Source: Vibrio algivorus (GTDB lineage: Bacteria; Pseudomonadota; Gammaproteobacteria; Enterobacterales; Vibrionaceae). From it: DNA of 32,000 nt. The position numbers and the translations under genes are program-made. Position 1 is the stretch's first letter, and each line of letters begins with the position of its first letter. The notes under the pieces were generated by a model. It searched no databases. It was given only the letters and a program-made list of their open reading frames with translations, and was not told where the DNA came from. The stretch lies in NCBI GenBank assembly GCA_002218005.2, contig AP018679.1; one strand, 5' to 3'. Positions 3,904-26,649 of the stretch are shown here, in pieces.

Positions 3904-3942
3904 AGCCGTTTGGTATCCAATTTAATGGCTTACAATTAACAT

Positions 3943-4881: not shown

Positions 4882-4906
4882 AATAAGCTCTCCCTTTCTT
4901 AACTCA

Positions 4907-4928: not shown

Positions 4929-5051
4929 GTATACCAAGGGTACAACATGCCTAGATTTTGATTCTTTCAGCAAAAGAAATCCGTTGGTACTAGATTAACT
5001 TTAGCTGAATTTGGAGATAATTATTAGTGACATAAGCTTGATTTTGGAAAG

Positions 5052-5085
5052 AAAAAAGCCGCTAAGTATAAAAACTTAACGGCTT
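5052..5085 (-). terminator. rho-independent terminator downstream of fnr
   Basis: Stem AAGCCGCTAAGT (5056-5067) / ACTTAACGGCTT (5074-5085) with one mismatch. It is followed on the minus strand by a T6 run (A-run 5052-5057 on plus). Confidence 0.55.
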
Positions 5086-5110
5086 AATCATTGATTAATT
5101 ATCGAATTTT

Positions 5111-5857: not shown

Positions 5858-5877
5858 AAAATACCGAGCAGTTTTAA

Positions 5878-5891
5878 TTGATATACATCAA
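5878..5891. promoter_or_regulatory. consensus FNR box TTGAT-N4-ATCAA upstream of fnr (autoregulatory site)
   Basis: The sequence TTGATATACATCAA is an exact match to both FNR half-sites. It lies 21 bp upstream of the fnr ATG. Confidence 0.7.
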
Positions 5892-5950
5892 TATTTTATC
5901 ACTCCATACTACTAAAGGACAGCAGAAAATCATCAGACATAACAGTTATA

Positions 5951-6622: not shown

Positions 6623-6813
6623 AGGGGCTTATCTTTTTTTTCAACAGGCTCAACAACCTTATCATCAAGATCATCGTTGTCATCAAATAAAATACTATGC
6701 CCTTGACGATCGAGATCATCAAATTGATCCGTTTTTACCGCCCACATAAACAAAGCGACGGCGATACAAACAAATATGATGGCTATTGGAATTAACAAAT
6801 ATAAGCTGGCCAT
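6619..6813 (-). CDS. ccoS: cbb3-type cytochrome oxidase maturation protein CcoS/FixS
   Basis: 64 aa with a single TM helix followed by the acidic QFDDLDRQGHSILFDD tail characteristic of CcoS. It sits immediately downstream of ccoI. Confidence 0.85.
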   Translation of the reverse strand: MASLYLLIPIAIIFVCIAVALFMWAVKTDQFDDLDRQGHSILFDDNDDLDDKVVEPVEKKDKPL

Positions 6814-6826
6814 TTAAAGAACCTTA

Positions 6827-9782: not shown

Positions 9783-10775
9783 TTATTGGGCAGGCTCTGA
9801 TTGAGTTTGGTTACTCAAACTCCAGACATAAGCACCAACAAGGTGAACTTTATCATCACCTAAGATATTACTCCAAGCAGGCATCACACCTTGACGACCA
9901 TACTGAACAGATTCAGTGACATCTGCGCGAGAATCGCCAAACAGCCAATCATTATCCGTCAGATCCGGTGCACCAAATGCTGGGTTACCTTTGCCGTCAG
10001 TACCATGACAAGCCGCACAAGCTGCAAAGCGTACTTTACCAGCTGCAGCTTCACGTGAGTTAACTTTACGTCCAGATAAGCTCAATACATAACTTACTAC
10101 TTCACGTACACCATCATCACCAAATGTTTCTCCCCATGCAGGCATCGCACCTACACGACCATGGCGAATAGTAGTTAAGATAGCCTCAGGCTCACCACCG
10201 TACAACCAAGCATCGTCGGTTAAATTAGGGAAACCTTTGAAACCACGAGCATCAGATCCATGACACTGAGAACAATTTTGCAAAAATAAATTTTGTCCTA
10301 CGCGTAAGGCGTCTGGATCTGAAGCAATTTCAGGTAATGTACGGTATGCAGTACCTTCAGAGTTATAAGCTAGGCGCTTAAACGACTCACCGTAAAATTT
10401 ATCGGCATCATCTAACTCTTTTGCATATTGATCTAACTGCTGATTATCTTGTGAAGCTTTAATTGATGCTTCCATTTCTTCAACAGATTTAACTTGCTGC
10501 GCAGAGCTCGTCCAACCTAGAAGGCCAGGGTAATTACCTAAACCTGGGAACAAAGCTAAATAAACAGCAGCAAAGATAAATGTTGAGAAGAATAAGTAAG
10601 TCCACCATTTTGGAAGTGGGTTGTTTAGCTCACGAATACCATCGTATTCATGCCCCATATCCGCACCTTCTTCTACGCCCATTTTATCTTTTAGACACCA
10701 GATTAAAATAGCCGCAATACCAAAGATTGTGCCCAGTGTAATTACGGTAATCCAAACACTCCAGAATGTAGTCAT
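9783..10775 (-). CDS. ccoP: cbb3-type cytochrome c oxidase subunit III, dihaem CcoP
   Basis: N-terminal TM helix and two haem-c motifs, CSQCHG and CAACHG. Confidence 0.93.
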   Translation of the reverse strand: MTTFWSVWITVITLGTIFGIAAILIWCLKDKMGVEEGADMGHEYDGIRELNNPLPKWWTYLFFSTFIFAAVYLALFPGLGNYPGLLGWTSSAQQVKSVEEMEASIKASQDNQQLDQYAKELDDADKFYGESFKRLAYNSEGTAYRTLPEIASDPDALRVGQNLFLQNCSQCHGSDARGFKGFPNLTDDAWLYGGEPEAILTTIRHGRVGAMPAWGETFGDDGVREVVSYVLSLSGRKVNSREAAAGKVRFAACAACHGTDGKGNPAFGAPDLTDNDWLFGDSRADVTESVQYGRQGVMPAWSNILGDDKVHLVGAYVWSLSNQTQSEPAQ

Positions 10776-13808: not shown

Positions 13809-13836
13809 ATTTAACATAATATACGTAATGCGCACT
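13809..13836. other. dif: dif, the 28-bp XerCD chromosome dimer resolution site (host XerD arm and 6-bp central region joined to a phage-derived XerC arm)
   Basis: ATTTAACATAA TATACG TAATGCGCACT. Its reverse complement, AGTGCGCATTA CGTATA TTATGTTAAAT, is near-identical to E. coli and V. cholerae dif as I remember them. It lies exactly at the left prophage boundary. Confidence 0.9.
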
Positions 13837-13837
13837 A

Positions 13838-15274
13838 TTAGATTGGTAAAATTGCATCCATATTGGGTAAGTCATTTCTCGATTTATTTGGTTGCATTGA
13901 ATTAGCCAGGTCTGTGATTGGATTGTTAACCTGGTCGCCAAAATCATTTGGTGTTTTTCTCATGTCACACGTCAGGAACTTACGAACGCCAGCTGTATTC
14001 ATTTCAACTAAACAATAATCTAAAACCTTAAATTGATAACCCATCTTTTCTAGCATTGAGTTATAAACATAAGATTCAGAGCCATCAGTCATTGTTTGTT
14101 TAAATACGATTGTTGGTATCACTTTTGTATCTGTTATTTTCAAACTGATGCCGCCTACATATACATTGGTAACATCAAATGGCCAAAGTTCAGGAACAGT
14201 GTTTACGCTGCGATTATTAAAAAACGGCTCACCACTCTCAGACAAAAGGCGACTATCATGAACATCATCAATCTGTACATTACGTATCTTAGAATCGGTT
14301 TTATCCATTGGTAAAACTTGGTTATTGGTTTGGCCAGTTTGGTTAACGGTTTGATTAGAATTGATATCCTGTGTTGAATCATCAGAATTATAACGTTGAT
14401 ACGCATCGATGCCCCCATAAATGACATAAAGAATTGAACAAAGCCCTAGCAACATTACTAAGACAAATTTGAAATTTGATAATGGACTAGAAGCAAGTCC
14501 TGATTTTGTTGTTTTGCCCGTTACTGTTGATTTATAAAGAAGATGAACCGCAAGAGGAACTTTAACCCGTCTACACTCTTCAGGCTTTGGACTGTTAAAG
14601 CTCGTTGCGTTTGGGTCATGTTCATACAATCTAGGTTTGCGCTTTGTGAAAAAAAACGAATCTTTAGATTTATGATGTATGGCAACCTCAGCACATGAAC
14701 GAACTTCAGTAGATAACTTTTTAATATTGGGTGTAACGAAAGTAATATCCCAGTTAAAGTGACGGTGTCTTGATATCGATTCTTCAAACGTTGGAGGTAA
14801 TCGAATGAGCCCATTATCATCAAATAAAGTTTCCCCTGAATCATCAATATCAATAGTTGATTCATCTGGTTTATAAGCCTCTAAAACACGGTTATAAAAA
14901 TCTGGATACCAGTCAGGCAAACCCTCTTTAAACTTTTCCAAACCTTGATATGTATTCTTAGCCATATCAAAGCCGACCGTTTTAGAATATATGTCCTGAC
15001 ATTCATCAATGATCATATAAGCGCCCATAGGCATCCAGTTGTAGAAGTTCTGCCACATATAACGGCCAGATTCAGTAAGCGAATAGATTTTTATAATTTT
15101 GGCTGATGGTGGAAATCGCTCACCTAGACGTTTTTCAATAGTTTCAACACTTTCCATACCTTGTATGTTTGTGACAACAACACGACCATTTCTAAGCGCA
15201 GGTAGTAAATCAAACCATACAGCGGTAGCTGACTTGTAAGAACCATTGGCACCATGACGAATTTTAACAGCCAT
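13838..15274 (-). CDS. Zot/pI-family phage assembly ATPase (gene I equivalent)
   Basis: Walker A-like GANGSYKS, Walker B MIIDEC, and WDITFVTP (compare Ff pI WDIIFLVQ). A central TM helix (FKFVLVMLLGLCSILYVIYGGI) is followed by an approximately 190-aa periplasmic C-terminal part. The stop codon lies 1 nt from the XerC arm. Confidence 0.88.
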   Translation of the reverse strand: MAVKIRHGANGSYKSATAVWFDLLPALRNGRVVVTNIQGMESVETIEKRLGERFPPSAKIIKIYSLTESGRYMWQNFYNWMPMGAYMIIDECQDIYSKTVGFDMAKNTYQGLEKFKEGLPDWYPDFYNRVLEAYKPDESTIDIDDSGETLFDDNGLIRLPPTFEESISRHRHFNWDITFVTPNIKKLSTEVRSCAEVAIHHKSKDSFFFTKRKPRLYEHDPNATSFNSPKPEECRRVKVPLAVHLLYKSTVTGKTTKSGLASSPLSNFKFVLVMLLGLCSILYVIYGGIDAYQRYNSDDSTQDINSNQTVNQTGQTNNQVLPMDKTDSKIRNVQIDDVHDSRLLSESGEPFFNNRSVNTVPELWPFDVTNVYVGGISLKITDTKVIPTIVFKQTMTDGSESYVYNSMLEKMGYQFKVLDYCLVEMNTAGVRKFLTCDMRKTPNDFGDQVNNPITDLANSMQPNKSRNDLPNMDAILPI

Positions 15275-15276
15275 AA

Positions 15277-15684
15277 TTAAGACCCCATGAAATCTAGAAC
15301 AAATCGAGTAACCATTGCTTCAACGATTCGGGTTAAACCAACAAAAATTCCATATTGATTCATCAAGCCTTTTTGCTGTGTTGAAAGACCTGAAAAAGCA
15401 TCATTAAGAAGTGAATCGAGGGAAAGATTTTGCATAAGTGAAATAGCTACACCATAAGCAAATTGAATAGATTCAAGCTGTAATTTGAGCTTAATAATCA
15501 CGCAATATTCAATGATGTAAGCGAACATTTGTTGAAAAAATGTAGGGGCATAACTGAAAAAATCACCAACATAATCCCCAATATCAACAAAATAACCAAT
15601 GATTGAGTTTTCTTCTTCTGGAGTAGCTGCATAAGTGCCAGACGAAAAAAACAAAAGTAAAAACGGAATAAAAAGGATCTTCAT
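15277..15684 (-). CDS. minor coat protein, gene VI positional equivalent (hydrophobic)
   Basis: 135-aa hydrophobic protein between the gIII-like and gI-like genes, separated by only 1-2 nt intergenic gaps. The assignment rests on position and hydrophobicity only. Confidence 0.6.
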   Translation of the reverse strand: MKILFIPFLLLFFSSGTYAATPEEENSIIGYFVDIGDYVGDFFSYAPTFFQQMFAYIIEYCVIIKLKLQLESIQFAYGVAISLMQNLSLDSLLNDAFSGLSTQQKGLMNQYGIFVGLTRIVEAMVTRFVLDFMGS

Positions 15685-15685
15685 C

Positions 15686-17089
15686 TTATCGTCTCCTTAC
15701 GATAATAATTGAAAAGGCAACCAGTGAACAAAGAGCAATGATTGCGGTAGAAATTAAGCTTGAATTATCAGACCAATATGAATTAGAAGTGCTAACAGTC
15801 CCCCATCTACCAGATAGAGTTATATTTTCATCAGAATAAGAACCTCCAGAGAAAGACGGAGCAATGTTTAAGTCAGTTTTAAACTGATTTATTTTGTCTT
15901 GAATCTGTTGAGTTAAATCATCTTTTTTCTGAGATAACTCGGCGAACTTTGAAGAATCAAAGACAGTAGAAAAATGATTCGATTGGGTGAAGTCCGGCAA
16001 ATCTCCAAACGGTGTTTTATTACAGTCTGGGTATTCTGGATTTTTATCACAAAATGATTTATTCATTTCATTTTCTATATTGTCTAAGTGCTTATTGGTT
16101 TGCGTAGTTCCTGAGAGTTGTTGACCAAGTTTCTTATTGATTTCTGTCTGTTGACCAAGTTGAGCTTTATAAAGTTTATTGTTCTGGTCAGATTTGGAAT
16201 CATAATTAGTAATAAACTCTTTCATTTTATGATTCATATTTTCAAGGTGTTGATTGGTAATAACCGCTTCTTTGTAAAGTGCATTATCCCCCTCGGTTAA
16301 ATTTGGGTTATCGCTAAGACTTGATGAATCTGGATTTTGATTAGGGTCATCCGTGAAAGGTGTATCAGAGTTATTACATAAATCGATACCTAATTCACAA
16401 GGATTAGGGTTTGAATTTAAATCATCAGGATTAGTAGATTCTTCTGGAATTTCTTCAGGCGGTGTTTCTGGAGGTAAAGCACACTCTTCATTTTCAGGAT
16501 TACAAATAGGTGTTTCTGGATTAGTTTCAGATTCACAAGTTAAACCCTGTATGCAATCTTTTTTATCATAATTACATGAAGTACTAACATCAGGTGAATT
16601 ATTTGACTCATTATCAACACAAGACCAATTAAAAACAGTTTCATAAAAAGAACTATTAGGATTGTTTAATTGACATGAATATTGTTCATTTTGAAATTGT
16701 TTTTGAATAGATGAATCGGAACAAAAAGTTGGTTCAATCTGACATCGACCATCAGAAGTTTCAACTGGATGAGTAGCAGGACAACCAGAAAAAGGAGAAA
16801 AAGAACCGTCATAGGCTGCTATTCTCACATTAGCAGAAGTAGCTTTGCACCAAATGCCATTCGAAACAACTTGAGGATTATCCAAACAAAGTTCTGTATC
16901 AAGTGAAGATAAATAGGGTAAACATAATGAATGTGGTTTGGATGAAAGATAAGTATCAAAATAAACAGGTTCACTTTTATAAAACGTACAACGGGCTTTT
17001 AAAATTACTTTATCAACTGTTTCAGCCTTAACGGGAATCGTATAAATATTAGAAAATACAAAAACGAAAAATAATAAAATCCATTTCAT
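15686..17089 (-). CDS. pIII-like minor coat / host-adsorption protein
   Basis: Signal peptide, a Cys-rich N-terminal domain, a Pro/Glu/Asn/Asp-rich low-complexity linker, and a C-terminal TM anchor ending in RRR (LISTAIIALCSLVAFSIIIVRRR). It occupies the gene III position. Confidence 0.8.
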   Translation of the reverse strand: MKWILLFFVFVFSNIYTIPVKAETVDKVILKARCTFYKSEPVYFDTYLSSKPHSLCLPYLSSLDTELCLDNPQVVSNGIWCKATSANVRIAAYDGSFSPFSGCPATHPVETSDGRCQIEPTFCSDSSIQKQFQNEQYSCQLNNPNSSFYETVFNWSCVDNESNNSPDVSTSCNYDKKDCIQGLTCESETNPETPICNPENEECALPPETPPEEIPEESTNPDDLNSNPNPCELGIDLCNNSDTPFTDDPNQNPDSSSLSDNPNLTEGDNALYKEAVITNQHLENMNHKMKEFITNYDSKSDQNNKLYKAQLGQQTEINKKLGQQLSGTTQTNKHLDNIENEMNKSFCDKNPEYPDCNKTPFGDLPDFTQSNHFSTVFDSSKFAELSQKKDDLTQQIQDKINQFKTDLNIAPSFSGGSYSDENITLSGRWGTVSTSNSYWSDNSSLISTAIIALCSLVAFSIIIVRRR

Positions 17090-17095
17090 AAGATC

Positions 17096-17119
17096 AAAAA
17101 AAGGGGCAATTAAGCCCCC
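17096..17119 (-). terminator. rho-independent terminator between the coat-gene block and the gIII-like gene
   Basis: The minus strand reads GGGGC TTAATT GCCCC followed by T7. This corresponds to the Ff terminator after gene VIII. Confidence 0.7.
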
Positions 17120-17136
17120 TCTCCTATAGTTAAAAA

Positions 17137-17229
17137 TTAATGTGTTTGAATGCCTGAAACAAAACCATAAATAAAGCTCATGGAGGATGAGATACCAAAA
17201 ATGATTTCTACAGGCATTGACCCCATCAT
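17137..17229 (-). CDS. 30-aa hydrophobic protein (candidate pVII/pIX-like minor coat protein; below the ORF-track cutoff)
   Basis: Hand translation: MMGSMPVEIIFGISSSMSFIYGFVSGIQTH. The ATG abuts the gVIII stop (TAAATG) and the ORF is followed by the terminator. Size and hydrophobicity resemble Ff pVII/pIX. Confidence 0.45.
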   Translation of the reverse strand: MMGSMPVEIIFGISSSMSFIYGFVSGIQTH

Positions 17230-17442
17230 TTACTTATTTAACCAACGAATAAGAAGACCCGCACCAAAGCCGATTGCAGCAACCGAAATAACGCCAGCAA
17301 CTACAAGAGTATAGTTTGCAGAAGAATCTGTAACCGCAGCATTAATATCAGTAGCGTAATCAGCAGCGAACGCAGTAGATGAAGCAGCAATAGAAGAAAC
17401 TACAGCACCAGTTTTTAGAGCAATGTTTTTAAAAGTTTTCAT
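17230..17442 (-). CDS. major coat protein (pVIII-type)
   Basis: Signal peptide ending AFA/AD. The approximately 44-aa mature part has an acidic N-terminus, a hydrophobic core (LVVAGVISVAAIGFGAGLLI) and a basic C-terminus (RWLNK). Confidence 0.88.
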   Translation of the reverse strand: MKTFKNIALKTGAVVSSIAASSTAFAADYATDINAAVTDSSANYTLVVAGVISVAAIGFGAGLLIRWLNK

Positions 17443-17466
17443 ATCAATATCCTATAAATAAAAAAA

Positions 17467-17670
17467 TTAAAGTTTGCTCATCCATCGTACGACTCGGCCA
17501 GCTCCATGACCAACGACAAACGAAAGTAAAAGATACCCAGAAACTTCCAGATATAGAGCTTTATCAAACACAAGGTTTGTTTGGGGAATGTCAGACGGTT
17601 CAAGCAAAATATAACCCTGACAAGTGTCATAGGTATCAGTTGTGACCTGACCATCTAACAAACATTTCAT
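17467..17670 (-). CDS. small phage protein with a C-terminal TM helix and basic tail (candidate minor coat protein)
   Basis: 67 aa. The C-terminus GYLLLSFVVGHGAGRVVRWMSKL resembles the coat-protein C-terminus. Its start overlaps the upstream stop (ATGA). Confidence 0.6.
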   Translation of the reverse strand: MKCLLDGQVTTDTYDTCQGYILLEPSDIPQTNLVFDKALYLEVSGYLLLSFVVGHGAGRVVRWMSKL

Positions 17671-17861
17671 ATATGACTCTCAAAAATTCCTAGTTCACGA
17701 ACACGCTTTAAATCAAGGACTTCGTTTGAACCGCAATCTTCACAAGAAATATCACCAATTAAAGAGCAGTCATTATCAGACCTAAATAACTGCCAATTGA
17801 TAGAAGATGAATCACAACAAGTACAAACTAAATCATCATCCTTTAAAGCAAATAAAGTCAT
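17667..17861 (-). CDS. Cys-rich 64-aa phage protein (zinc-ribbon-like CxCC...C...CxxC)
   Basis: MTLFALKDDDLVCTCCDSS...CSLIGDISCEDCGS. It is translationally coupled on both sides (TAATG with gV, ATGA with the next gene). Confidence 0.6.
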   Translation of the reverse strand: MTLFALKDDDLVCTCCDSSSINWQLFRSDNDCSLIGDISCEDCGSNEVLDLKRVRELGIFESHI

Positions 17862-18160
17862 TACGAAACCTTACTAAGTTGAGCCTGATTTACAGGAACT
17901 AATTTTAAGTTACGGTCGAACTCTAAGCGGTCGAACTGTCCAACCTTGAAAGAATCTTGGGTAAAATAATATTTACCCTCAGTGTATGCAGGTTGCCCTT
18001 CCTCAAGTGGAAGACGAAACTCAACAGGGAATTTACCGCCAGTATGAGCGTATGCAACTTGAGAATATAATTTCATCGCAGCTCGTTTATCATTTGCAGG
18101 CAGTTCGCGAACGTCTACCACTTCATTTTCTTTAAATACTTCGATAATTAATTGATTCAT
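17861..18160 (-). CDS. ssDNA-binding protein, Ff gene V homologue
   Basis: LEEGQPAYTEGKYYFTQDSFKVGQFDRLEFDRNLKLVP aligns with M13 gpV ...LDEGQPAYAPGLYTVHLSSFKVGQFGSLMIDRLRLVP (from memory). It is located directly after the replication gene. Confidence 0.88.
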   Translation of the reverse strand: MNQLIIEVFKENEVVDVRELPANDKRAAMKLYSQVAYAHTGGKFPVEFRLPLEEGQPAYTEGKYYFTQDSFKVGQFDRLEFDRNLKLVPVNQAQLSKVS

Positions 18161-18171
18161 TTTTTAATTCC

Positions 18172-18558
18172 TTATGCCACTAAGTGGATTACATTTTCAT
18201 CAAAACCATATAAACGGGAAATATCCCCTACTTTCTCTACATAATCAGACGGTCGCTGATTTGCGAAATCTATTTCAATAACTTGAAGTAATGGAACGAC
18301 ATTATCTTTTCCATTGCCTTGTAAATTCTGTAATTGAGCTTTGGAGAAACCCGCCTTAAGCAAAAGATTTAAATTATCGTAAAAAGTACTACTAGAACTA
18401 AAGGTATCTTTAACTGCATTGTAACCATCAGATACCAATGAACGATAAAAACGAAAAACTCTATCGGCCTTTGAATATGACATATTTCCTTTAGGTGTTA
18501 CTTTTACATAAATTGACTTTAAATTTGTATAAACTTCATCATCATTAAATATATTCAT
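18172..18558 (-). CDS. candidate nested gene X-like product (in-frame internal start within gII, 128 aa)
   Basis: Internal ATG at 18558 (Met304, MNIFNDDEV...) is preceded by AAGGGG 6 nt upstream. It aligns with the M13 gene X start (MNIYDDSAV). Confidence 0.45.
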   Translation of the reverse strand: MNIFNDDEVYTNLKSIYVKVTPKGNMSYSKADRVFRFYRSLVSDGYNAVKDTFSSSSTFYDNLNLLLKAGFSKAQLQNLQGNGKDNVVPLLQVIEIDFANQRPSDYVEKVGDISRLYGFDENVIHLVA

Positions 18559-19467
18559 CTTTTGCCCCTTAAGCGCATCTAACAACGGGCTGTACGCTCT
18601 TAACCATATATCTTTAATTAAACAGGATTTGTTTTCTTTTTCATATTTAACTTGATACTTAATAGCATCAATTAATTTTTTAGGTACTTCAAATTCATCT
18701 AAATATCTACGCTTTGCACTAGCTTCAAACCTAACAAGATTGCGAGCATAATTAATTAAAAAAGGGTCACTCATTACATCAATAACTTTATCGTATTCTT
18801 TTGAACCTTTTTCTTTAAGTGAGCGCAATTGATCTAATTGTCTTTTGAATTCAAAATATTTTAAATAAACCTTTCTATCAACATGGCGTGAATTCTTAGA
18901 AAAATATGCGGTAGTCTCATACTCATTACGAACACTAGATCGCATTTGTTTATTTGAAATATTCTTAAGCTGATTAATAACCTGCTTTGACATATCTTCA
19001 TTTTTAACACGAGCAGAATAAGTGCAATCGACACAATCCAAAGTAGCGTTTGGGATATCTAGCATGTTATAGAAATCAGAATAAGCATTAAGCAAGCACA
19101 TCATCATTTCAGTTGAACCATTCAAAATTGACGTTGAACCATAAACATTATGGCCCTGAATAATTTTGGCCGGACTCGCTTTTAACTCTACACAAGCATC
19201 ACGAAGCGGAGTTCCTTGAAAAATCTTAAACGCCATACCAGTAAAGGAAGTAGCTAAACTCTGATAAGGATGACGCAAGTCAGTAACTTCAAAACCGTCA
19301 TTGCGTTCGTTGCCAGTAAAATGAACAGATTTAGCTTCAAGACCTACACCACGAGAAGAACATTCCTTCAAATCAACATAACGAACGCACTGACCAGTAG
19401 CCGTCTGTTGAGTTTGAAGAAGATATTCTTCTTTAAACGGTATAGAGATTTTAAGCATATCAATCAT
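18172..19467 (-). CDS. rolling-circle replication initiator, Ff gene II homologue
   Basis: MIDML start, plus ...FTGMAFKIFQG...VELKASPAKIIQGHNVYG...LVRFEASAKRRYL...MNIFNDDEV...VVPLLQVIEIDFANQRP. These parallel M13 gpII (MIDMLVLRLPF..., VEIKASPAKVLQGHNVFG, LVRFEARIKTRYL, MNIYDDSAV, from memory). Confidence 0.9.
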   Translation of the reverse strand: MIDMLKISIPFKEEYLLQTQQTATGQCVRYVDLKECSSRGVGLEAKSVHFTGNERNDGFEVTDLRHPYQSLATSFTGMAFKIFQGTPLRDACVELKASPAKIIQGHNVYGSTSILNGSTEMMMCLLNAYSDFYNMLDIPNATLDCVDCTYSARVKNEDMSKQVINQLKNISNKQMRSSVRNEYETTAYFSKNSRHVDRKVYLKYFEFKRQLDQLRSLKEKGSKEYDKVIDVMSDPFLINYARNLVRFEASAKRRYLDEFEVPKKLIDAIKYQVKYEKENKSCLIKDIWLRAYSPLLDALKGQKMNIFNDDEVYTNLKSIYVKVTPKGNMSYSKADRVFRFYRSLVSDGYNAVKDTFSSSSTFYDNLNLLLKAGFSKAQLQNLQGNGKDNVVPLLQVIEIDFANQRPSDYVEKVGDISRLYGFDENVIHLVA

Positions 19468-19480
19468 AAAGGTAACTTTG

Positions 19481-19555
19481 TCACAAGTGATTTAGATTAT
19501 AAATTAATACATCATCACATGTGACAATGCAAGAAAAGATACAAATAACTTGTGA
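19481..19555. promoter_or_regulatory. divergent promoter/operator region: three copies of the palindromic motif TCACA(A/T)GTGA
   Basis: TCACAAGTGA at 19481-19490, the perfect palindrome TCACATGTGA at 19515-19524, and ACTTGTGA at 19548-19555 (reverse orientation, 8/10). Spacing is 34 and about 31 bp. A minus-strand TATAAT lies at 19496-19501, between the first two sites. Confidence 0.5.
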
Positions 19556-19599
19556 TGAAGTTACAATGTTATGAAGTGACTCGAAATTAAGGAGGCAAA

Positions 19600-19758
19600 A
19601 TGCCCACTCTAAGACTTGATGAAAAAAGATGGCGAGAGATTGAAAAAAAAGCCGTTGATATGACTATAAAGACACAAAAACCTGTAACGGTACCAGAAGT
19701 AATAAAGGCCGTACTAGATAAATGCTTAAAAGAATTGAAACCAGAAGATCTAAAGTAA
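19600..19758 (+). CDS. 52-aa ribbon-helix-helix-like transcriptional regulator, divergent from gII (RstR-position analogue; below the ORF-track cutoff)
   Basis: AAGGAGG SD 4 nt upstream of the ATG. Hand translation: MPTLRLDEKRWREIEKKAVDMTIKTQKPVTVPEVIKAVLDKCLKELKPEDLK, a short N-terminal strand followed by two helices. It is the only plus-strand gene in the phage and lies between the origin and gII. Confidence 0.6.
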   Translation: MPTLRLDEKRWREIEKKAVDMTIKTQKPVTVPEVIKAVLDKCLKELKPEDLK

Positions 19759-19775
19759 ATTCCGAAATCCGGACA

Positions 19776-19804
19776 AGAGTACACTATTAAAGATAGTGTA
19801 CTCT
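19776..19804 (-). other. plus-strand replication origin hairpin with an Ff-type gpII nick motif
   Basis: The minus strand reads AGAGTACACTAT CTTTA ATAGTGTACTCT, followed by TGTCCGGATTTCGGA. The core CTTTAATAGTGtACTCTTGT matches the f1/M13 origin GTTCTTTAATAGTGGACTCTTGTTCC (from memory). The stem is 12 bp and perfect. Confidence 0.75.
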
Positions 19805-20037
19805 CCCTGCCTCCTTGCTCCTCCGCGCTCAGCTTTCGCTTGTGCGTCGCAATCGTCCGGTCGAGATAAAAATCATTTTAAAAGAGAAAAGAATTCTAGA
19901 GGATGAAGGTTTTTTCATCTAACTGGTATGTCATTTTTTTAACATACCCAGCTTTGGTGCGGTTAGTGACGGATGTCCTCCGAGCACTATGAGAATGTAA
20001 TTACTATGCAGTAGCTTTAGAATTCGGGTGGGCTGAT

Positions 20038-20149
20038 AGTTCGCATTACGGCCATTATGCTAAAGGCGCACTTCGTGCGGTCGCCAGTGCTGCGCAATGG
20101 TACTGACGACCACGCTTTCAACATAATGCCAGACTACGTAATGCGCACT
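20038..20149. other. attP region at the copy 1/copy 2 junction: two inverted dif-like sites able to fold into a forked hairpin
   Basis: Site A (20038-20065) is AGTTCGCATTA CGGCCA TTATGCTAAAG. Site B (20116-20149) has the reverse complement AGTGCGCATTA CGTAGTCTGGCA TTATGTTGAAA. The arms are complementary, the central regions differ (6 versus 12 nt), and the inner stem CGTGCGGTCG/CGACCACG extends the hairpin. Confidence 0.8.
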
Positions 20150-20150
20150 A

Positions 20151-21587
20151 TTAGATTGGTAAAATTGCATCCATATTGGGTAAGTCATTTCTCGATTTAT
20201 TTGGTTGCATTGAATTAGCCAGGTCTGTGATTGGATTGTTAACCTGGTCGCCAAAATCATTTGGTGTTTTTCTCATGTCACACGTCAGGAACTTACGAAC
20301 GCCAGCTGTATTCATTTCAACTAAACAATAATCTAAAACCTTAAATTGATAACCCATCTTTTCTAGCATTGAGTTATAAACATAAGATTCAGAGCCATCA
20401 GTCATTGTTTGTTTAAATACGATTGTTGGTATCACTTTTGTATCTGTTATTTTCAAACTGATGCCGCCTACATATACATTGGTAACATCAAATGGCCAAA
20501 GTTCAGGAACAGTGTTTACGCTGCGATTATTAAAAAACGGCTCACCACTCTCAGACAAAAGGCGACTATCATGAACATCATCAATCTGTACATTACGTAT
20601 CTTAGAATCGGTTTTATCCATTGGTAAAACTTGGTTATTGGTTTGGCCAGTTTGGTTAACGGTTTGATTAGAATTGATATCCTGTGTTGAATCATCAGAA
20701 TTATAACGTTGATACGCATCGATGCCCCCATAAATGACATAAAGAATTGAACAAAGCCCTAGCAACATTACTAAGACAAATTTGAAATTTGATAATGGAC
20801 TAGAAGCAAGTCCTGATTTTGTTGTTTTGCCCGTTACTGTTGATTTATAAAGAAGATGAACCGCAAGAGGAACTTTAACCCGTCTACACTCTTCAGGCTT
20901 TGGACTGTTAAAGCTCGTTGCGTTTGGGTCATGTTCATACAATCTAGGTTTGCGCTTTGTGAAAAAAAACGAATCTTTAGATTTATGATGTATGGCAACC
21001 TCAGCACATGAACGAACTTCAGTAGATAACTTTTTAATATTGGGTGTAACGAAAGTAATATCCCAGTTAAAGTGACGGTGTCTTGATATCGATTCTTCAA
21101 ACGTTGGAGGTAATCGAATGAGCCCATTATCATCAAATAAAGTTTCCCCTGAATCATCAATATCAATAGTTGATTCATCTGGTTTATAAGCCTCTAAAAC
21201 ACGGTTATAAAAATCTGGATACCAGTCAGGCAAACCCTCTTTAAACTTTTCCAAACCTTGATATGTATTCTTAGCCATATCAAAGCCGACCGTTTTAGAA
21301 TATATGTCCTGACATTCATCAATGATCATATAAGCGCCCATAGGCATCCAGTTGTAGAAGTTCTGCCACATATAACGGCCAGATTCAGTAAGCGAATAGA
21401 TTTTTATAATTTTGGCTGATGGTGGAAATCGCTCACCTAGACGTTTTTCAATAGTTTCAACACTTTCCATACCTTGTATGTTTGTGACAACAACACGACC
21501 ATTTCTAAGCGCAGGTAGTAAATCAAACCATACAGCGGTAGCTGACTTGTAAGAACCATTGGCACCATGACGAATTTTAACAGCCAT
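20151..21587 (-). CDS. Zot/pI-family phage assembly ATPase (copy 2)
   Basis: Translation identical to 13838..15274. Confidence 0.88.
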   Translation of the reverse strand: MAVKIRHGANGSYKSATAVWFDLLPALRNGRVVVTNIQGMESVETIEKRLGERFPPSAKIIKIYSLTESGRYMWQNFYNWMPMGAYMIIDECQDIYSKTVGFDMAKNTYQGLEKFKEGLPDWYPDFYNRVLEAYKPDESTIDIDDSGETLFDDNGLIRLPPTFEESISRHRHFNWDITFVTPNIKKLSTEVRSCAEVAIHHKSKDSFFFTKRKPRLYEHDPNATSFNSPKPEECRRVKVPLAVHLLYKSTVTGKTTKSGLASSPLSNFKFVLVMLLGLCSILYVIYGGIDAYQRYNSDDSTQDINSNQTVNQTGQTNNQVLPMDKTDSKIRNVQIDDVHDSRLLSESGEPFFNNRSVNTVPELWPFDVTNVYVGGISLKITDTKVIPTIVFKQTMTDGSESYVYNSMLEKMGYQFKVLDYCLVEMNTAGVRKFLTCDMRKTPNDFGDQVNNPITDLANSMQPNKSRNDLPNMDAILPI

Positions 21588-21589
21588 AA

Positions 21590-21997
21590 TTAAGACCCCA
21601 TGAAATCTAGAACAAATCGAGTAACCATTGCTTCAACGATTCGGGTTAAACCAACAAAAATTCCATATTGATTCATCAAGCCTTTTTGCTGTGTTGAAAG
21701 ACCTGAAAAAGCATCATTAAGAAGTGAATCGAGGGAAAGATTTTGCATAAGTGAAATAGCTACACCATAAGCAAATTGAATAGATTCAAGCTGTAATTTG
21801 AGCTTAATAATCACGCAATATTCAATGATGTAAGCGAACATTTGTTGAAAAAATGTAGGGGCATAACTGAAAAAATCACCAACATAATCCCCAATATCAA
21901 CAAAATAACCAATGATTGAGTTTTCTTCTTCTGGAGTAGCTGCATAAGTGCCAGACGAAAAAAACAAAAGTAAAAACGGAATAAAAAGGATCTTCAT
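21590..21997 (-). CDS. gene VI-position minor coat protein (copy 2)
   Basis: Translation identical to 15277..15684. Confidence 0.6.
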   Translation of the reverse strand: MKILFIPFLLLFFSSGTYAATPEEENSIIGYFVDIGDYVGDFFSYAPTFFQQMFAYIIEYCVIIKLKLQLESIQFAYGVAISLMQNLSLDSLLNDAFSGLSTQQKGLMNQYGIFVGLTRIVEAMVTRFVLDFMGS

Positions 21998-21998
21998 C

Positions 21999-23402
21999 TT
22001 ATCGTCTCCTTACGATAATAATTGAAAAGGCAACCAGTGAACAAAGAGCAATGATTGCGGTAGAAATTAAGCTTGAATTATCAGACCAATATGAATTAGA
22101 AGTGCTAACAGTCCCCCATCTACCAGATAGAGTTATATTTTCATCAGAATAAGAACCTCCAGAGAAAGACGGAGCAATGTTTAAGTCAGTTTTAAACTGA
22201 TTTATTTTGTCTTGAATCTGTTGAGTTAAATCATCTTTTTTCTGAGATAACTCGGCGAACTTTGAAGAATCAAAGACAGTAGAAAAATGATTCGATTGGG
22301 TGAAGTCCGGCAAATCTCCAAACGGTGTTTTATTACAGTCTGGGTATTCTGGATTTTTATCACAAAATGATTTATTCATTTCATTTTCTATATTGTCTAA
22401 GTGCTTATTGGTTTGCGTAGTTCCTGAGAGTTGTTGACCAAGTTTCTTATTGATTTCTGTCTGTTGACCAAGTTGAGCTTTATAAAGTTTATTGTTCTGG
22501 TCAGATTTGGAATCATAATTAGTAATAAACTCTTTCATTTTATGATTCATATTTTCAAGGTGTTGATTGGTAATAACCGCTTCTTTGTAAAGTGCATTAT
22601 CCCCCTCGGTTAAATTTGGGTTATCGCTAAGACTTGATGAATCTGGATTTTGATTAGGGTCATCCGTGAAAGGTGTATCAGAGTTATTACATAAATCGAT
22701 ACCTAATTCACAAGGATTAGGGTTTGAATTTAAATCATCAGGATTAGTAGATTCTTCTGGAATTTCTTCAGGCGGTGTTTCTGGAGGTAAAGCACACTCT
22801 TCATTTTCAGGATTACAAATAGGTGTTTCTGGATTAGTTTCAGATTCACAAGTTAAACCCTGTATGCAATCTTTTTTATCATAATTACATGAAGTACTAA
22901 CATCAGGTGAATTATTTGACTCATTATCAACACAAGACCAATTAAAAACAGTTTCATAAAAAGAACTATTAGGATTGTTTAATTGACATGAATATTGTTC
23001 ATTTTGAAATTGTTTTTGAATAGATGAATCGGAACAAAAAGTTGGTTCAATCTGACATCGACCATCAGAAGTTTCAACTGGATGAGTAGCAGGACAACCA
23101 GAAAAAGGAGAAAAAGAACCGTCATAGGCTGCTATTCTCACATTAGCAGAAGTAGCTTTGCACCAAATGCCATTCGAAACAACTTGAGGATTATCCAAAC
23201 AAAGTTCTGTATCAAGTGAAGATAAATAGGGTAAACATAATGAATGTGGTTTGGATGAAAGATAAGTATCAAAATAAACAGGTTCACTTTTATAAAACGT
23301 ACAACGGGCTTTTAAAATTACTTTATCAACTGTTTCAGCCTTAACGGGAATCGTATAAATATTAGAAAATACAAAAACGAAAAATAATAAAATCCATTTC
23401 AT
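21999..23402 (-). CDS. pIII-like adsorption protein (copy 2)
   Basis: Translation identical to 15686..17089. Confidence 0.8.
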   Translation of the reverse strand: MKWILLFFVFVFSNIYTIPVKAETVDKVILKARCTFYKSEPVYFDTYLSSKPHSLCLPYLSSLDTELCLDNPQVVSNGIWCKATSANVRIAAYDGSFSPFSGCPATHPVETSDGRCQIEPTFCSDSSIQKQFQNEQYSCQLNNPNSSFYETVFNWSCVDNESNNSPDVSTSCNYDKKDCIQGLTCESETNPETPICNPENEECALPPETPPEEIPEESTNPDDLNSNPNPCELGIDLCNNSDTPFTDDPNQNPDSSSLSDNPNLTEGDNALYKEAVITNQHLENMNHKMKEFITNYDSKSDQNNKLYKAQLGQQTEINKKLGQQLSGTTQTNKHLDNIENEMNKSFCDKNPEYPDCNKTPFGDLPDFTQSNHFSTVFDSSKFAELSQKKDDLTQQIQDKINQFKTDLNIAPSFSGGSYSDENITLSGRWGTVSTSNSYWSDNSSLISTAIIALCSLVAFSIIIVRRR

Positions 23403-23408
23403 AAGATC

Positions 23409-23432
23409 AAAAAAAGGGGCAATTAAGCCCCC
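23409..23432 (-). terminator. phage internal terminator (copy 2)
   Basis: Same sequence as 17096..17119. Confidence 0.7.
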
Positions 23433-23449
23433 TCTCCTATAGTTAAAAA

Positions 23450-23542
23450 TTAATGTGTTTGAATGCCTGAAACAAAACCATAAATAAAGCTCATGGAGGA
23501 TGAGATACCAAAAATGATTTCTACAGGCATTGACCCCATCAT
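23450..23542 (-). CDS. 30-aa hydrophobic protein (copy 2)
   Basis: Same sequence as 17137..17229. Confidence 0.45.
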   Translation of the reverse strand: MMGSMPVEIIFGISSSMSFIYGFVSGIQTH

Positions 23543-23755
23543 TTACTTATTTAACCAACGAATAAGAAGACCCGCACCAAAGCCGATTGCAGCAACCGAA
23601 ATAACGCCAGCAACTACAAGAGTATAGTTTGCAGAAGAATCTGTAACCGCAGCATTAATATCAGTAGCGTAATCAGCAGCGAACGCAGTAGATGAAGCAG
23701 CAATAGAAGAAACTACAGCACCAGTTTTTAGAGCAATGTTTTTAAAAGTTTTCAT
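23543..23755 (-). CDS. major coat protein (copy 2)
   Basis: Translation identical to 17230..17442. Confidence 0.88.
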   Translation of the reverse strand: MKTFKNIALKTGAVVSSIAASSTAFAADYATDINAAVTDSSANYTLVVAGVISVAAIGFGAGLLIRWLNK

Positions 23756-23779
23756 ATCAATATCCTATAAATAAAAAAA

Positions 23780-23983
23780 TTAAAGTTTGCTCATCCATCG
23801 TACGACTCGGCCAGCTCCATGACCAACGACAAACGAAAGTAAAAGATACCCAGAAACTTCCAGATATAGAGCTTTATCAAACACAAGGTTTGTTTGGGGA
23901 ATGTCAGACGGTTCAAGCAAAATATAACCCTGACAAGTGTCATAGGTATCAGTTGTGACCTGACCATCTAACAAACATTTCAT
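23780..23983 (-). CDS. 67-aa TM-tailed phage protein (copy 2)
   Basis: Translation identical to 17467..17670. Confidence 0.6.
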   Translation of the reverse strand: MKCLLDGQVTTDTYDTCQGYILLEPSDIPQTNLVFDKALYLEVSGYLLLSFVVGHGAGRVVRWMSKL

Positions 23984-24174
23984 ATATGACTCTCAAAAAT
24001 TCCTAGTTCACGAACACGCTTTAAATCAAGGACTTCGTTTGAACCGCAATCTTCACAAGAAATATCACCAATTAAAGAGCAGTCATTATCAGACCTAAAT
24101 AACTGCCAATTGATAGAAGATGAATCACAACAAGTACAAACTAAATCATCATCCTTTAAAGCAAATAAAGTCAT
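23980..24174 (-). CDS. Cys-rich 64-aa phage protein (copy 2)
   Basis: Translation identical to 17667..17861. Confidence 0.6.
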   Translation of the reverse strand: MTLFALKDDDLVCTCCDSSSINWQLFRSDNDCSLIGDISCEDCGSNEVLDLKRVRELGIFESHI

Positions 24175-24473
24175 TACGAAACCTTACTAAGTTGAGCCTG
24201 ATTTACAGGAACTAATTTTAAGTTACGGTCGAACTCTAAGCGGTCGAACTGTCCAACCTTGAAAGAATCTTGGGTAAAATAATATTTACCCTCAGTGTAT
24301 GCAGGTTGCCCTTCCTCAAGTGGAAGACGAAACTCAACAGGGAATTTACCGCCAGTATGAGCGTATGCAACTTGAGAATATAATTTCATCGCAGCTCGTT
24401 TATCATTTGCAGGCAGTTCGCGAACGTCTACCACTTCATTTTCTTTAAATACTTCGATAATTAATTGATTCAT
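24174..24473 (-). CDS. gene V-like ssDNA-binding protein (copy 2)
   Basis: Translation identical to 17861..18160. Confidence 0.88.
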   Translation of the reverse strand: MNQLIIEVFKENEVVDVRELPANDKRAAMKLYSQVAYAHTGGKFPVEFRLPLEEGQPAYTEGKYYFTQDSFKVGQFDRLEFDRNLKLVPVNQAQLSKVS

Positions 24474-24484
24474 TTTTTAATTCC

Positions 24485-25780
24485 TTATGCCACTAAGTGG
24501 ATTACATTTTCATCAAAACCATATAAACGGGAAATATCCCCTACTTTCTCTACATAATCAGACGGTCGCTGATTTGCGAAATCTATTTCAATAACTTGAA
24601 GTAATGGAACGACATTATCTTTTCCATTGCCTTGTAAATTCTGTAATTGAGCTTTGGAGAAACCCGCCTTAAGCAAAAGATTTAAATTATCGTAAAAAGT
24701 ACTACTAGAACTAAAGGTATCTTTAACTGCATTGTAACCATCAGATACCAATGAACGATAAAAACGAAAAACTCTATCGGCCTTTGAATATGACATATTT
24801 CCTTTAGGTGTTACTTTTACATAAATTGACTTTAAATTTGTATAAACTTCATCATCATTAAATATATTCATCTTTTGCCCCTTAAGCGCATCTAACAACG
24901 GGCTGTACGCTCTTAACCATATATCTTTAATTAAACAGGATTTGTTTTCTTTTTCATATTTAACTTGATACTTAATAGCATCAATTAATTTTTTAGGTAC
25001 TTCAAATTCATCTAAATATCTACGCTTTGCACTAGCTTCAAACCTAACAAGATTGCGAGCATAATTAATTAAAAAAGGGTCACTCATTACATCAATAACT
25101 TTATCGTATTCTTTTGAACCTTTTTCTTTAAGTGAGCGCAATTGATCTAATTGTCTTTTGAATTCAAAATATTTTAAATAAACCTTTCTATCAACATGGC
25201 GTGAATTCTTAGAAAAATATGCGGTAGTCTCATACTCATTACGAACACTAGATCGCATTTGTTTATTTGAAATATTCTTAAGCTGATTAATAACCTGCTT
25301 TGACATATCTTCATTTTTAACACGAGCAGAATAAGTGCAATCGACACAATCCAAAGTAGCGTTTGGGATATCTAGCATGTTATAGAAATCAGAATAAGCA
25401 TTAAGCAAGCACATCATCATTTCAGTTGAACCATTCAAAATTGACGTTGAACCATAAACATTATGGCCCTGAATAATTTTGGCCGGACTCGCTTTTAACT
25501 CTACACAAGCATCACGAAGCGGAGTTCCTTGAAAAATCTTAAACGCCATACCAGTAAAGGAAGTAGCTAAACTCTGATAAGGATGACGCAAGTCAGTAAC
25601 TTCAAAACCGTCATTGCGTTCGTTGCCAGTAAAATGAACAGATTTAGCTTCAAGACCTACACCACGAGAAGAACATTCCTTCAAATCAACATAACGAACG
25701 CACTGACCAGTAGCCGTCTGTTGAGTTTGAAGAAGATATTCTTCTTTAAACGGTATAGAGATTTTAAGCATATCAATCAT
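24485..25780 (-). CDS. gene II-like replication initiator (copy 2; nested gX-like start at 24871)
   Basis: Translation identical to 18172..19467. Confidence 0.9.
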   Translation of the reverse strand: MIDMLKISIPFKEEYLLQTQQTATGQCVRYVDLKECSSRGVGLEAKSVHFTGNERNDGFEVTDLRHPYQSLATSFTGMAFKIFQGTPLRDACVELKASPAKIIQGHNVYGSTSILNGSTEMMMCLLNAYSDFYNMLDIPNATLDCVDCTYSARVKNEDMSKQVINQLKNISNKQMRSSVRNEYETTAYFSKNSRHVDRKVYLKYFEFKRQLDQLRSLKEKGSKEYDKVIDVMSDPFLINYARNLVRFEASAKRRYLDEFEVPKKLIDAIKYQVKYEKENKSCLIKDIWLRAYSPLLDALKGQKMNIFNDDEVYTNLKSIYVKVTPKGNMSYSKADRVFRFYRSLVSDGYNAVKDTFSSSSTFYDNLNLLLKAGFSKAQLQNLQGNGKDNVVPLLQVIEIDFANQRPSDYVEKVGDISRLYGFDENVIHLVA

Positions 25781-25793
25781 AAAGGTAACTTTG

Positions 25794-25868
25794 TCACAAG
25801 TGATTTAGATTATAAATTAATACATCATCACATGTGACAATGCAAGAAAAGATACAAATAACTTGTGA
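25794..25868. promoter_or_regulatory. operator/promoter region (copy 2)
   Basis: Same sequence as 19481..19555. Confidence 0.5.
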
Positions 25869-25912
25869 TGAAGTTACAATGTTATGAAGTGACTCGAAAT
25901 TAAGGAGGCAAA

Positions 25913-26071
25913 ATGCCCACTCTAAGACTTGATGAAAAAAGATGGCGAGAGATTGAAAAAAAAGCCGTTGATATGACTATAAAGACACAAAAACCTGTAA
26001 CGGTACCAGAAGTAATAAAGGCCGTACTAGATAAATGCTTAAAAGAATTGAAACCAGAAGATCTAAAGTAA
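25913..26071 (+). CDS. 52-aa RHH-like regulator (copy 2)
   Basis: Same sequence as 19600..19758. Confidence 0.6.
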   Translation: MPTLRLDEKRWREIEKKAVDMTIKTQKPVTVPEVIKAVLDKCLKELKPEDLK

Positions 26072-26088
26072 ATTCCGAAATCCGGACA

Positions 26089-26117
26089 AGAGTACACTAT
26101 TAAAGATAGTGTACTCT
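26089..26117 (-). other. plus-strand origin hairpin (copy 2)
   Basis: Same sequence as 19776..19804. Confidence 0.75.
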
Positions 26118-26350
26118 CCCTGCCTCCTTGCTCCTCCGCGCTCAGCTTTCGCTTGTGCGTCGCAATCGTCCGGTCGAGATAAAAATCATTTTAAAAGAGA
26201 AAAGAATTCTAGAGGATGAAGGTTTTTTCATCTAACTGGTATGTCATTTTTTTAACATACCCAGCTTTGGTGCGGTTAGTGACGGATGTCCTCCGAGCAC
26301 TATGAGAATGTAATTACTATGCAGTAGCTTTAGAATTCGGGTGGGCTGAT

Positions 26351-26462
26351 AGTTCGCATTACGGCCATTATGCTAAAGGCGCACTTCGTGCGGTCGCCAG
26401 TGCTGCGCAATGGTACTGACGACCACGCTTTCAACATAATGCCAGACTACGTAATACGCACT
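26351..26462. other. attP-derived region and right prophage/host junction (phage XerD-like arm, 12-bp central region, host XerC arm)
   Basis: 26429-26462 reads TTTCAACATAA TGCCAGACTACG TAATACGCACT. The XerC arm carries A at 26456 where the other two copies carry G. Sequence to the right (AAAGTTGTAGG...) is unrelated to the phage. Confidence 0.8.
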
Positions 26463-26649
26463 AAAGTTGTAGGCGCAAAGTAGTAATATCACCTTTAACA
26501 AAGTTAACATATGGTACTTTCATCTTAGTTTTACTATACCGCCGACAATAGTTTGTAGGTTACTTATCAAGTGGTTGTGGAGATTTTATTGCATGGCGGC
26601 CTATTAGAACGATAACTATAATTTTAATCCATCACCTTTTAGTTACCAC

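Follow-up and report, generated by a model that had tools for sequence, protein, structure and literature searches.

A 32,000-nt stretch of the Vibrio algivorus genome (contig AP018679.1 of assembly GCA_002218005.2; here the window, whose positions serve as coordinates throughout) carries a filamentous prophage that appears twice in succession, and the locus raises the question of how such an array arises and what it is able to do. We consider it highly probable that the array is a head-to-tail pair of copies of a 6,313-nt temperate inovirus, integrated at the V. algivorus dif site in the manner of CTXphi, through the host recombinases XerC and XerD. As the phage has no recombinase of its own and uses those of the host, it counts among the integrative mobile elements that exploit Xer (IMEX).

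Two identical phage genomes inserted at dif

Every base from 13822 to 20142 is identical to the base 6313 positions downstream (0 mismatches), giving a repeat that spans 13822-26455, or 2 x 6313 + 8 nt, and therefore every open reading frame (ORF) recurs exactly. Copy A occupies 13826-20138 and copy B, a second complete unit, occupies 20139-26451, both on the minus strand and each 6313 nt long. An exact duplicate of 6.3 kb cannot arise by chance. A preliminary description of the window had claimed two identical head-to-tail copies, and our comparison of the units agrees, with 0 mismatches in 6313 nt; exact alignment revealed no frameshift or stop differences, and all genes are intact in both copies. 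The same description placed an 11-bp third copy of the XerC arm after the array. An arm is indeed present there (26452-26462), but it is not an exact copy, matching at only 10 of 11 bases, with an A at 26456.

Short reads independently contain the joint between units. The Logan short-read assembly of run DRR129659 is 100% identical to the window over all of the overlap, and its phage unitig of 6321 nt corresponds to window 13822-20142. The right-flank unitig begins at 26426 (26456-30) and the left-flank unitig stops at 13851 (13821+30), which are the branch points expected of a k=31 graph when reads connect the end of the phage with its start. Thus, the DRR129659 reads contain this junction, which shows that it is real.

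Integration at dif, also claimed previously, is supported by a canonical 28-bp dif at 13809-13836 and by an empty dif at the same place in conspecific strains. We compared the flanks with other genomes using flanking ORFs of 137 and 253 amino acids (aa). In GCA_007623795.1, a V. algivorus strain by name (PMC9679969), and in the Logan assembly of run SRR27362814, the flanks are 98.3-99.6% identical to the window, and a plain 28-bp dif without a phage lies between the 137-aa ORF and a 111-aa ORF. Thus, the 12.6 kb represents an insertion exactly at dif. The dif 28-mer of the left junction is identical to the empty dif of Vibrio sp. CK2-1 and of the metagenome-assembled genome (MAG) EC02-08, and also occurs in V. 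litoralis, there beside another prophage; the flanks of CK2-1, V. litoralis and one MAG are 86-92% identical to the window.

Attachment sites and junctions

The left junction (13809-13836) is a regenerated canonical dif, in which a chromosomal XerD arm (ATTTAACATAA, 13809-13819) and a chromosomal central region (TATACG, 13820-13825) adjoin the phage XerC arm (TAATGCGCACT, 13826-13836). At the middle of the array lies an intact attP1 (20116-20149, minus strand), composed of XerC arm AGTGCGCATTA (20149-20139), a 12-nt central region CGTAGTCTGGCA (20138-20127) and XerD arm TTATGTTGAAA (20126-20116), which on the phage (+) strand directly follows gI. The right junction (26429-26462, minus strand) is a hybrid site in which the XerD arm and 12-nt central region of attP1 are joined to XerC arm TAATACGCACT (26452-26462). 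The left and middle junctions share arm TAATGCGCACT, and the right junction has the one-base variant. Within each unit zot ends 1 nt from the XerC arm, and a 52-aa ORF, the origin and attP lie at the opposite end.

The published Vibrio IMEX junction motif (PMC12715192) matches the window at exactly three places, the left, middle and right junctions, and the mid-junction attP1 fits the form of that motif with a 12-nt spacer. Four nucleotides, CGTA, are common to the phage and dif next to the XerC-arm boundary. Read from sequence, this make-up supports an XerC exchange at the boundary between the XerC arm and the central region of attP1, with the right-junction arm taken to be the chromosomal arm that preceded integration.

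A second dif-like site, attP2 (20038-20065; copy B, 26351-26378; plus strand), lies 50 nt from attP1 in inverted orientation and consists of XerC arm AGTTCGCATTA, a 6-bp central region (CGGCCA) and XerD arm TTATGCTAAAG. Single-stranded DNA (ssDNA) spanning attP1 and attP2 is predicted to fold into a forked hairpin in which XerC arm pairs with XerC arm and XerD arm with XerD arm, and the extra central nucleotides form a 6-nt bulge (-29.8 kcal/mol, z = -4.5; 0 of 200 shuffled sequences fold as well). Pairing of the XerC arms also appears in unconstrained ssDNA folds of 7/7 related phages examined.

Replication origin and a model for virion production

Over 97% of its length, the replication initiator pII is ~40% identical to its counterparts in IKe, Ff and the Erwinia PEar phages, and the origin is of f1/IKe type. 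The (+)-strand origin (19761-19803, minus strand, read 19803-19761; copy B, 26074-26116) has stem-loops that align with the IKe origin. Its minus-strand reading, GAGTACACTAT-CTTTA-ATAGTGTACTC-TTGT-TCCG-GATTT-CGGA, comprises a first hairpin, TTGT and a second hairpin, and matches base for base the two stem-loops annotated as the IKe viral-strand origin (NC_002014 6554-6599). Four relatives from IMG/VR have the first hairpin and its loop unchanged, and the DNA around them varies. The second hairpin is kept through compensatory changes (TCCG/CGGA, TGCG/CGCA, TCTA/TAGA, TTGC/GCAA). We take these stem-loops for the origin and pII nick site, and by reference to Ff biology the nick is predicted in the first hairpin, within CTTT^AATA (~19787/19786, minus strand). 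The array contains two identical f1/IKe-type origins one unit apart, oriented to yield a 6313-nt circle with an intact attP.

In CTXphi-type IMEX, attP1 has a 12-bp and attP2 a 5-7-bp central region, the two sites are inverted and active only as folded (+)ssDNA, integration is irreversible once the DNA is double-stranded, and phage is produced by rolling-circle replication from tandem prophages (PMC4246890). The V. algivorus locus presents the corresponding attachment features: integration at dif, no recombinase match, a regenerated dif, two inverted sites, a predicted hairpin and junctions at attP1.

On this pattern, the packaged (+) strand would correspond to the minus strand of the window, and attP1 and attP2 would fold into the forked hairpin, the stem of which would serve as the duplex bound by XerC and XerD. 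By analogy with CTXphi, XerC would exchange one pair of strands between hairpin and dif at the boundary of XerC arm and central region, guided by the CGTA identity, and replication would then resolve the integration intermediate. This should leave, upstream of the phage, a hybrid site whose spacer is 12 nt and, downstream of zot, a canonical dif made of the phage XerC arm and the chromosomal central region and XerD arm. This regenerated dif could accept a second copy, and such a second integration would account for both the array and the phage-type XerC arm at the mid junction. In the double-stranded prophage neither attP1 nor attP2 would be a usable Xer substrate, so that no excision is expected.

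For production, pII would nick the copy B origin (26116-26074), and the displaced (+) strand would run leftward through gII to gI, the mid-junction attP1 and attP2, and would end at the copy A origin (19803-19761), so that the circle released would have 6,313 nt and the sequence of the infecting genome. A round started at the copy A origin would run into the chromosome, where there is no terminating origin. The geometry of the array fits the CTXphi model of production from tandem prophages, and virion production is predicted by this analogy. The preliminary description had assumed the CTXphi rule that a dif-integrated prophage does not excise and yields virion ssDNA only from tandem arrays; the inverted attP1/attP2 pair, the hairpin, the attP1 junctions and the spacing of the origins support extending the rule to this phage.

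Evidence against and alternative explanations

Several points weigh against this account. The right-junction arm, with A at 26456, matches no empty site in relatives, as the sister species have G there and the conspecific strains have two other arms; the A could be a mutation that followed integration. In the short-read graph a tandem array looks no different from a single prophage accompanied by a circular replicative form; the copy number comes not from this graph but from one assembly of unknown read type. XerC-only catalysis, irreversibility, the ssDNA intermediate and virions are all proposed by analogy with CTXphi, and as the phage has an Ff/IKe-type pII and not the RstA of CTXphi, the host-factor requirements of CTXphi need not carry over. 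Taken alone, attP2 spans 28 bp around a 6-bp central region, and some Xer activity on it as double-stranded DNA is conceivable. Additionally, the 52-aa ORF proposed as a regulator has no recognisable family or fold by Pfam at E<=10, a PDB sequence search or Foldseek against PDB.

Of the alternatives, the one that survives best, although we think it improbable, holds that the array is real and of CTXphi type but silent or defective, because it is repressed or finds no export route or receptor, and is a stable passenger of the chromosome. Lacking a secretin gene, the phage would depend on a secretin of the host for export, and none is seen in the window; a putative divergent repressor is present, and CTXphi itself makes very few particles (PMC4246890). 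However, neither copy has a frameshift or stop in any gene, the origin and attP are likewise unbroken and conserved, and the lack of any divergence between copies speaks for an element that is recent and active.

An assembly artefact or a mis-stated copy number, with one integrated copy accompanied by a free circular replicative form or with some other number of copies, is less probable still. Two copies identical at every base would also be the look of a duplicated consensus, and the collapse of the phage to one 6321-nt unitig in the DRR129659 graph shows only that a circular or tandem junction exists. However, a short-read assembler would collapse or break such a repeat, and two copies within a contig of ~1.1 Mb imply long-range information. 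Closed or long contigs of four other species carry similar arrays, arrays are reported for 95% of members of this phage class (PMC12715192), and under CTXphi-type integration a replicative form would itself need an array or a recent infection.

We give very little credence to a VGJphi- or TLCphi-type route, by which the double-stranded genome would integrate reversibly through a single dif-like site and could excise, the array being incidental: this mode is common among Vibrio inoviruses (PMC4246890), the sister species V. litoralis carries an XafT-positive inovirus at the orthologous dif and attP2 alone has a canonical 6-bp spacer, but the junctions lie at attP1 with arms 12 nt apart, a spacing reported as no Xer substrate (PMC4246890), the attP1 XerC arm has no acceptable XerD arm at a distance of 6-8 nt, none of the ten unit ORFs scanned matches XafT/DUF3653, 7/7 relatives keep the inverted second site together with its pairing to attP1, and recombination at attP2, inverted relative to the regenerated dif, would invert and not excise.

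Comparison with known filamentous phages

Integration of the CTXphi type by host XerC/XerD, the reading we prefer, places the V. algivorus phage beside CTXphi, RS1, Ypfphi and CUS-1phi. Like these, it has no integrase, integrates at dif, carries inverted sites with 12-nt and 5-7-nt spacers that are predicted to form a (+)ssDNA hairpin, would cross over at the XerC-arm boundary, leaves a canonical dif at the 3' end of the prophage, forms tandem arrays, fits an origin-to-origin model and encodes a Zot-type pI and no secretin. In contrast to CTXphi, it has an Ff/IKe-type pII/pX (PF05144 and PF05155), an f1/IKe-like origin and a PF02303 pV in place of RstB, it lacks ctxAB, its tiny regulator is different, and its host is V. 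algivorus. A Rep_trans initiator beside an RstB gene is carried by CTX-like elements that neighbour the arrays of relatives (in V. mediterranei CP033577 and in a second segment, L097).

The Ff phages (f1/M13/fd) and IKe share with it pII/pX, pV, both origin hairpins and the gene order gII-gV-small ORFs-gVIII-gIII-gVI-gI. Unlike them, the V. algivorus phage has no gIV secretin, and it has a Zot-type pI, a divergent small regulator and integration at dif via a Xer hairpin; the IKe record NC_002014 has gIV annotated and no attachment site. We thus rejected membership of the Ff/IKe group (Inovirus / Lineavirus), as only the replication module is shared, there is no pIV secretin and the element lies at dif. 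Two other IMEX types were also rejected: the VGJphi type because the crossover site, attP1, has a 12-nt spacer and the only site with 6-bp spacing, attP2, is inverted and off the junction, and the TLCphi or 'CTX-I' type because the unit holds no DUF3653 match.

A closer fit is the 'CTX-II' class, defined in a study of 688 Vibrio genomes (PMC12715192, Commun Biol 2025), which describes elements without ctxAB or xafT, with a regulator and zot at the termini and a length of 6.7 +/- 0.7 kb, 75 of 79 of which (95%) occur in tandem arrays. The V. algivorus phage shares the absence of CtxAB and XafT, the regulator and zot termini, a length of 6.3 kb, the junction motif with 6- and 12-nt spacers and the array, and is a member only in the sense of the operational definition given in that paper. 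The text of the paper makes no mention of V. algivorus, of the Rumoiensis clade or of a hairpin attP. We infer that the array habit of 'CTX-II' is linked to a CTXphi-type attP.

The pII protein is 100% identical to an NCBI entry that bears the name V. algivorus; its best homologues apart from that entry are at most 74% identical, with values of ~60-74% in >20 Vibrionaceae species. DNA searches of the unit against INPHARED and PLSDB returned only short or partial matches, with no close full-length relative and no named phage to which it could be assigned, and none of the papers listed by a literature search on V. algivorus and phages mentioned this species. The element, which carries an Ff/IKe-type replicon, adds a previously undescribed member to a group that is both known and common, the CTXphi-type ('CTX-II') IMEX inoviruses, and the tandem state is the norm for this class and not a rarity. 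It shows the CTXphi strategy in clean form outside cholera, combined with an Ff/IKe-type replicon that is well understood and has an origin and nick site readable from sequence, and leaves the current understanding of IMEX biology unchanged. In V. algivorus, an alginate-degrading marine bacterium, the phage is probably active, and natural strains with an empty dif could serve as recipients.

Arrays in related phages

We read the arrays of relatives in closed or long contigs of four Vibrionaceae species. These hold two copies in V. mediterranei (CP033577, period 6996, 0 mismatches), four in V. maritimus (CP090438, period 9351, 0 mismatches), two in V. cyclitrophicus (CP170010, period 6221, 0 mismatches) and at least two in Aliivibrio fischeri (JADOAV01, period 6792, 3 mismatches). 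In all four, zot is followed by a canonical dif and the junctions are of attP1 type, with spacers of 9-11 nt; the motif located an inverted attP2 in three of them, V. cyclitrophicus being the exception.

Together with five IMG/VR contigs, these relatives have a pII 65-72% identical to that of the V. algivorus phage, an identical origin core, and attP1 with an inverted attP2 hairpin. They differ in pI, which is 28-35% identical, in pIII, which is not recognisably conserved, in regulators, which are of the 52-aa type or of helix-turn-helix (HTH) types of 61-111 aa, and in unit lengths of 6.2-9.4 kb. As far as sequence comparison can indicate, conservation of the replication module beside divergence of pI and pIII points to modular exchange of the adsorption and assembly block, which probably tracks differences in host receptors. 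The V. algivorus example would extend the CTXphi mechanism to a lineage found in >20 Vibrionaceae species, and would offer a mechanistic reason for 'CTX-II' arrays.

More tentatively, this lineage, in which the pII/origin replicon is of Ff/IKe type and the hairpin attP of CTXphi type, may need arrays for its reproduction. The perfect arrays (0 mismatches) of 2-4 copies in five species would then be rebuilt continually within the cell by re-integration of rolling-circle ssDNA from the array at the adjacent regenerated dif, and the XerC arms, with ~7 nt beyond them, that differ between the empty dif sites of otherwise 99.5%-identical V. algivorus strains would be scars; we regard this as possible but rather unlikely. 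If true, the number of copies would vary and amplify itself, and the near-universal arrays of 'CTX-II' would follow of necessity from the mechanism instead of arising through superinfection. The arm scars would then imply a still unknown route by which 'irreversibly' integrated copies are lost.

The DRR129659 draft, in which the array is collapsed to one 6,321-nt unitig and the chromosome is broken at dif, is a concrete case of arrays lost from draft genomes. As short-read assemblers collapse or break such exact tandem repeats, their copy numbers are systematically under-reported.

Some related arrays carry or adjoin additional elements. In V. maritimus each 9,351-bp unit (CP090438 1804219-1853576) has two cargo genes, one transposase-like (454 aa, HTH_28/HTH_32) and the other encoding an HU-like DNA-binding protein. 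In V. mediterranei CP033577, upstream of the two phage copies, there are tandem units of ~2,020 bp (4849-9054 of the retrieved segment) with the same attP1/attP2 pair, ORFs of 246 and 100 aa and no structural genes, which resemble a satellite IMEX that has the attachment site of the phage; further out there is an RstA (Rep_trans)/RstB element.

Gene content of the unit

Ten ORFs of the unit were scanned in Pfam and PHROG profile searches, and copy B coordinates are those of copy A plus 6313. The phage genes lie within 6.3 kb, all on the minus strand except the divergent 52-aa ORF. The earlier statement that each unit is a full inovirus genome holds in that both the N- and C-terminal domains of pII, as well as pV, pVIII, pVI and pI/Zot, were matched in Pfam or PHROG. 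The features diagnostic of Inoviridae are present, namely a pI/Zot ATPase and, in a compact block on one strand, a small major coat protein, an ssDNA-binding protein and a rolling-circle initiator. No secretin, integrase, toxin or XafT/DUF3653 match was found among the ten ORFs.

The replication genes begin with gII (18172-19467; copy B, 24485-25780), encoding a rolling-circle replication initiator of 431 aa (PF05144, E=4.6e-53; PF05155, E=2.7e-18). By analogy with the gX annotation of IKe, an in-frame gX is probable within gII, starting at ATG 18558 (Met304) behind a Shine-Dalgarno-like aagggg and encoding 128 aa. The ssDNA-binding protein gene gV (17861-18160; copy B, 24174-24473) encodes 99 aa (PF02303, E=2.1e-17; phrog_1199, E=1e-28). 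Two small ORFs occupy the gVII/gIX position (17467-17861; copy B, 23780-24174), from which alone we infer their function. One, orf67 (17467-17670), matches phrog_969 (E=4.5e-15); the other, orf64 (17667-17861; copy B, 23980-24174; 64 aa), lies between gV and orf67 and contains a zinc-ribbon-like CxxC...CxxC pattern, with weak, sub-threshold zinc-ribbon or zinc-finger matches and no homologue by tblastn in five IMG/VR relatives.

Among the structural genes, gVIII (17230-17442; copy B, 23543-23755) encodes a 70-aa major coat protein (phrog_1859, 'major head protein', E=6.7e-20), the translation of which shows a signal peptide, an acidic N-terminus, a hydrophobic core and a basic C-terminus. It is directly followed by a doubtful 30-aa ORF (17137-17229). 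The 467-aa gIII-like protein (15686-17089; copy B, 21999-23402) had no significant Pfam or PHROG family match and is proposed as the adsorption protein from its position, size, N-terminal signal-like segment and C-terminal hydrophobic anchor ending in RRR. The gVI-like gene (15277-15684; copy B, 21590-21997) encodes a 135-aa minor coat protein (phrog_306, 'Ace-like minor protein', E=1.5e-22) with a DUF2523 match (E=3e-4) slightly short of the Pfam cut-off. The gI or Zot-like assembly ATPase (13838-15274; copy B, 20151-21587; 478 aa; PF05707, E=5.7e-43; phrog_197, E=1.9e-67) is ~35% identical to the Zots of Vibrio phages. All of these genes are on the minus strand.

The preliminary description also listed a regulator. 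The divergent 52-aa ORF to which this applies is present between the origin and gII (19600-19758; copy B, 25913-26071; plus strand), but the regulatory role follows from position only. It matches phrog_5219 (E=2e-10), a PHROG without characterised function, and homologues 69-71% identical lie in the same place and orientation in two IMG/VR relatives. Its location is that of rstR, and it may be a putative repressor. A single-sequence AlphaFold2 (AF2) model has pLDDT 70, an extended N-terminus and two helices, and a ribbon-helix-helix repressor would be a guess.

Outside the array, the left flank holds the ccoNOQP / ccoGHIS / fnr cluster, and the right flank an scsC/dsbA-like gene, a DUF413 gene and hdfR.

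Variation at the dif locus and small replicons

The XerC arm of dif and the next 7 nt differ in each V. algivorus strain despite flanks that are 98-99.6% identical, and the conserved sequence resumes immediately after. These positions read TAATACGCACT AAAGTTG in the window (26452-26470), TAATGCGAACT TAGTGTG in GCA_007623795.1 (10565-10600 of the retrieved segment) and TAATGCGCATT AATAATG in SRR27362814 (10565-10640 of the retrieved segment). This strain-variable segment may be the footprint of repeated IMEX traffic at this dif. We rejected the reading of the GCA_007623795.1 arm, which equals the attP2 arm, as an excision scar, since attP2 and dif lie in opposite orientations and, with only 24 arm variants permitted by the published motif, the match is likely to be due to chance. 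The SRR27362814 strain additionally has a 19-nt direct duplication (GTAAGCGCAAAGTAGTAAT twice) adjoining its empty dif at ~10596-10640, which is present as a single copy in the window and in GCA_007623795.1.

At the orthologous dif of V. litoralis DSM 17657 there is a different inovirus of ~7.6 kb in the opposite orientation (1495-9125 of the retrieved segment). It encodes an RstR-like HTH/DUF3693 protein, a 517-aa pII-type Rep (32% identical), an RstB-like protein and Zot, and an XafT-like DUF3653 gene adjoins its lone XerC arm. This inovirus is of the XafT-positive 'CTX-I'/TLC-like class.

Parts of the replication module also occur in plasmids. The 3,504-bp V. parahaemolyticus plasmid NC_012859.1 matches the unit only over pII/X and the ssDNA-binding gene, with 66% nucleotide identity over 1.4 kb, and the 82-kb V. 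tapetis plasmid NZ_LT960613.1 (648-730) contains a stretch of 83 nt that shares 84.5% identity with the origin region. Homologues of pII are also found on many Logan contigs of 2-3.5 kb, which suggests mini-replicons derived from this phage lineage.

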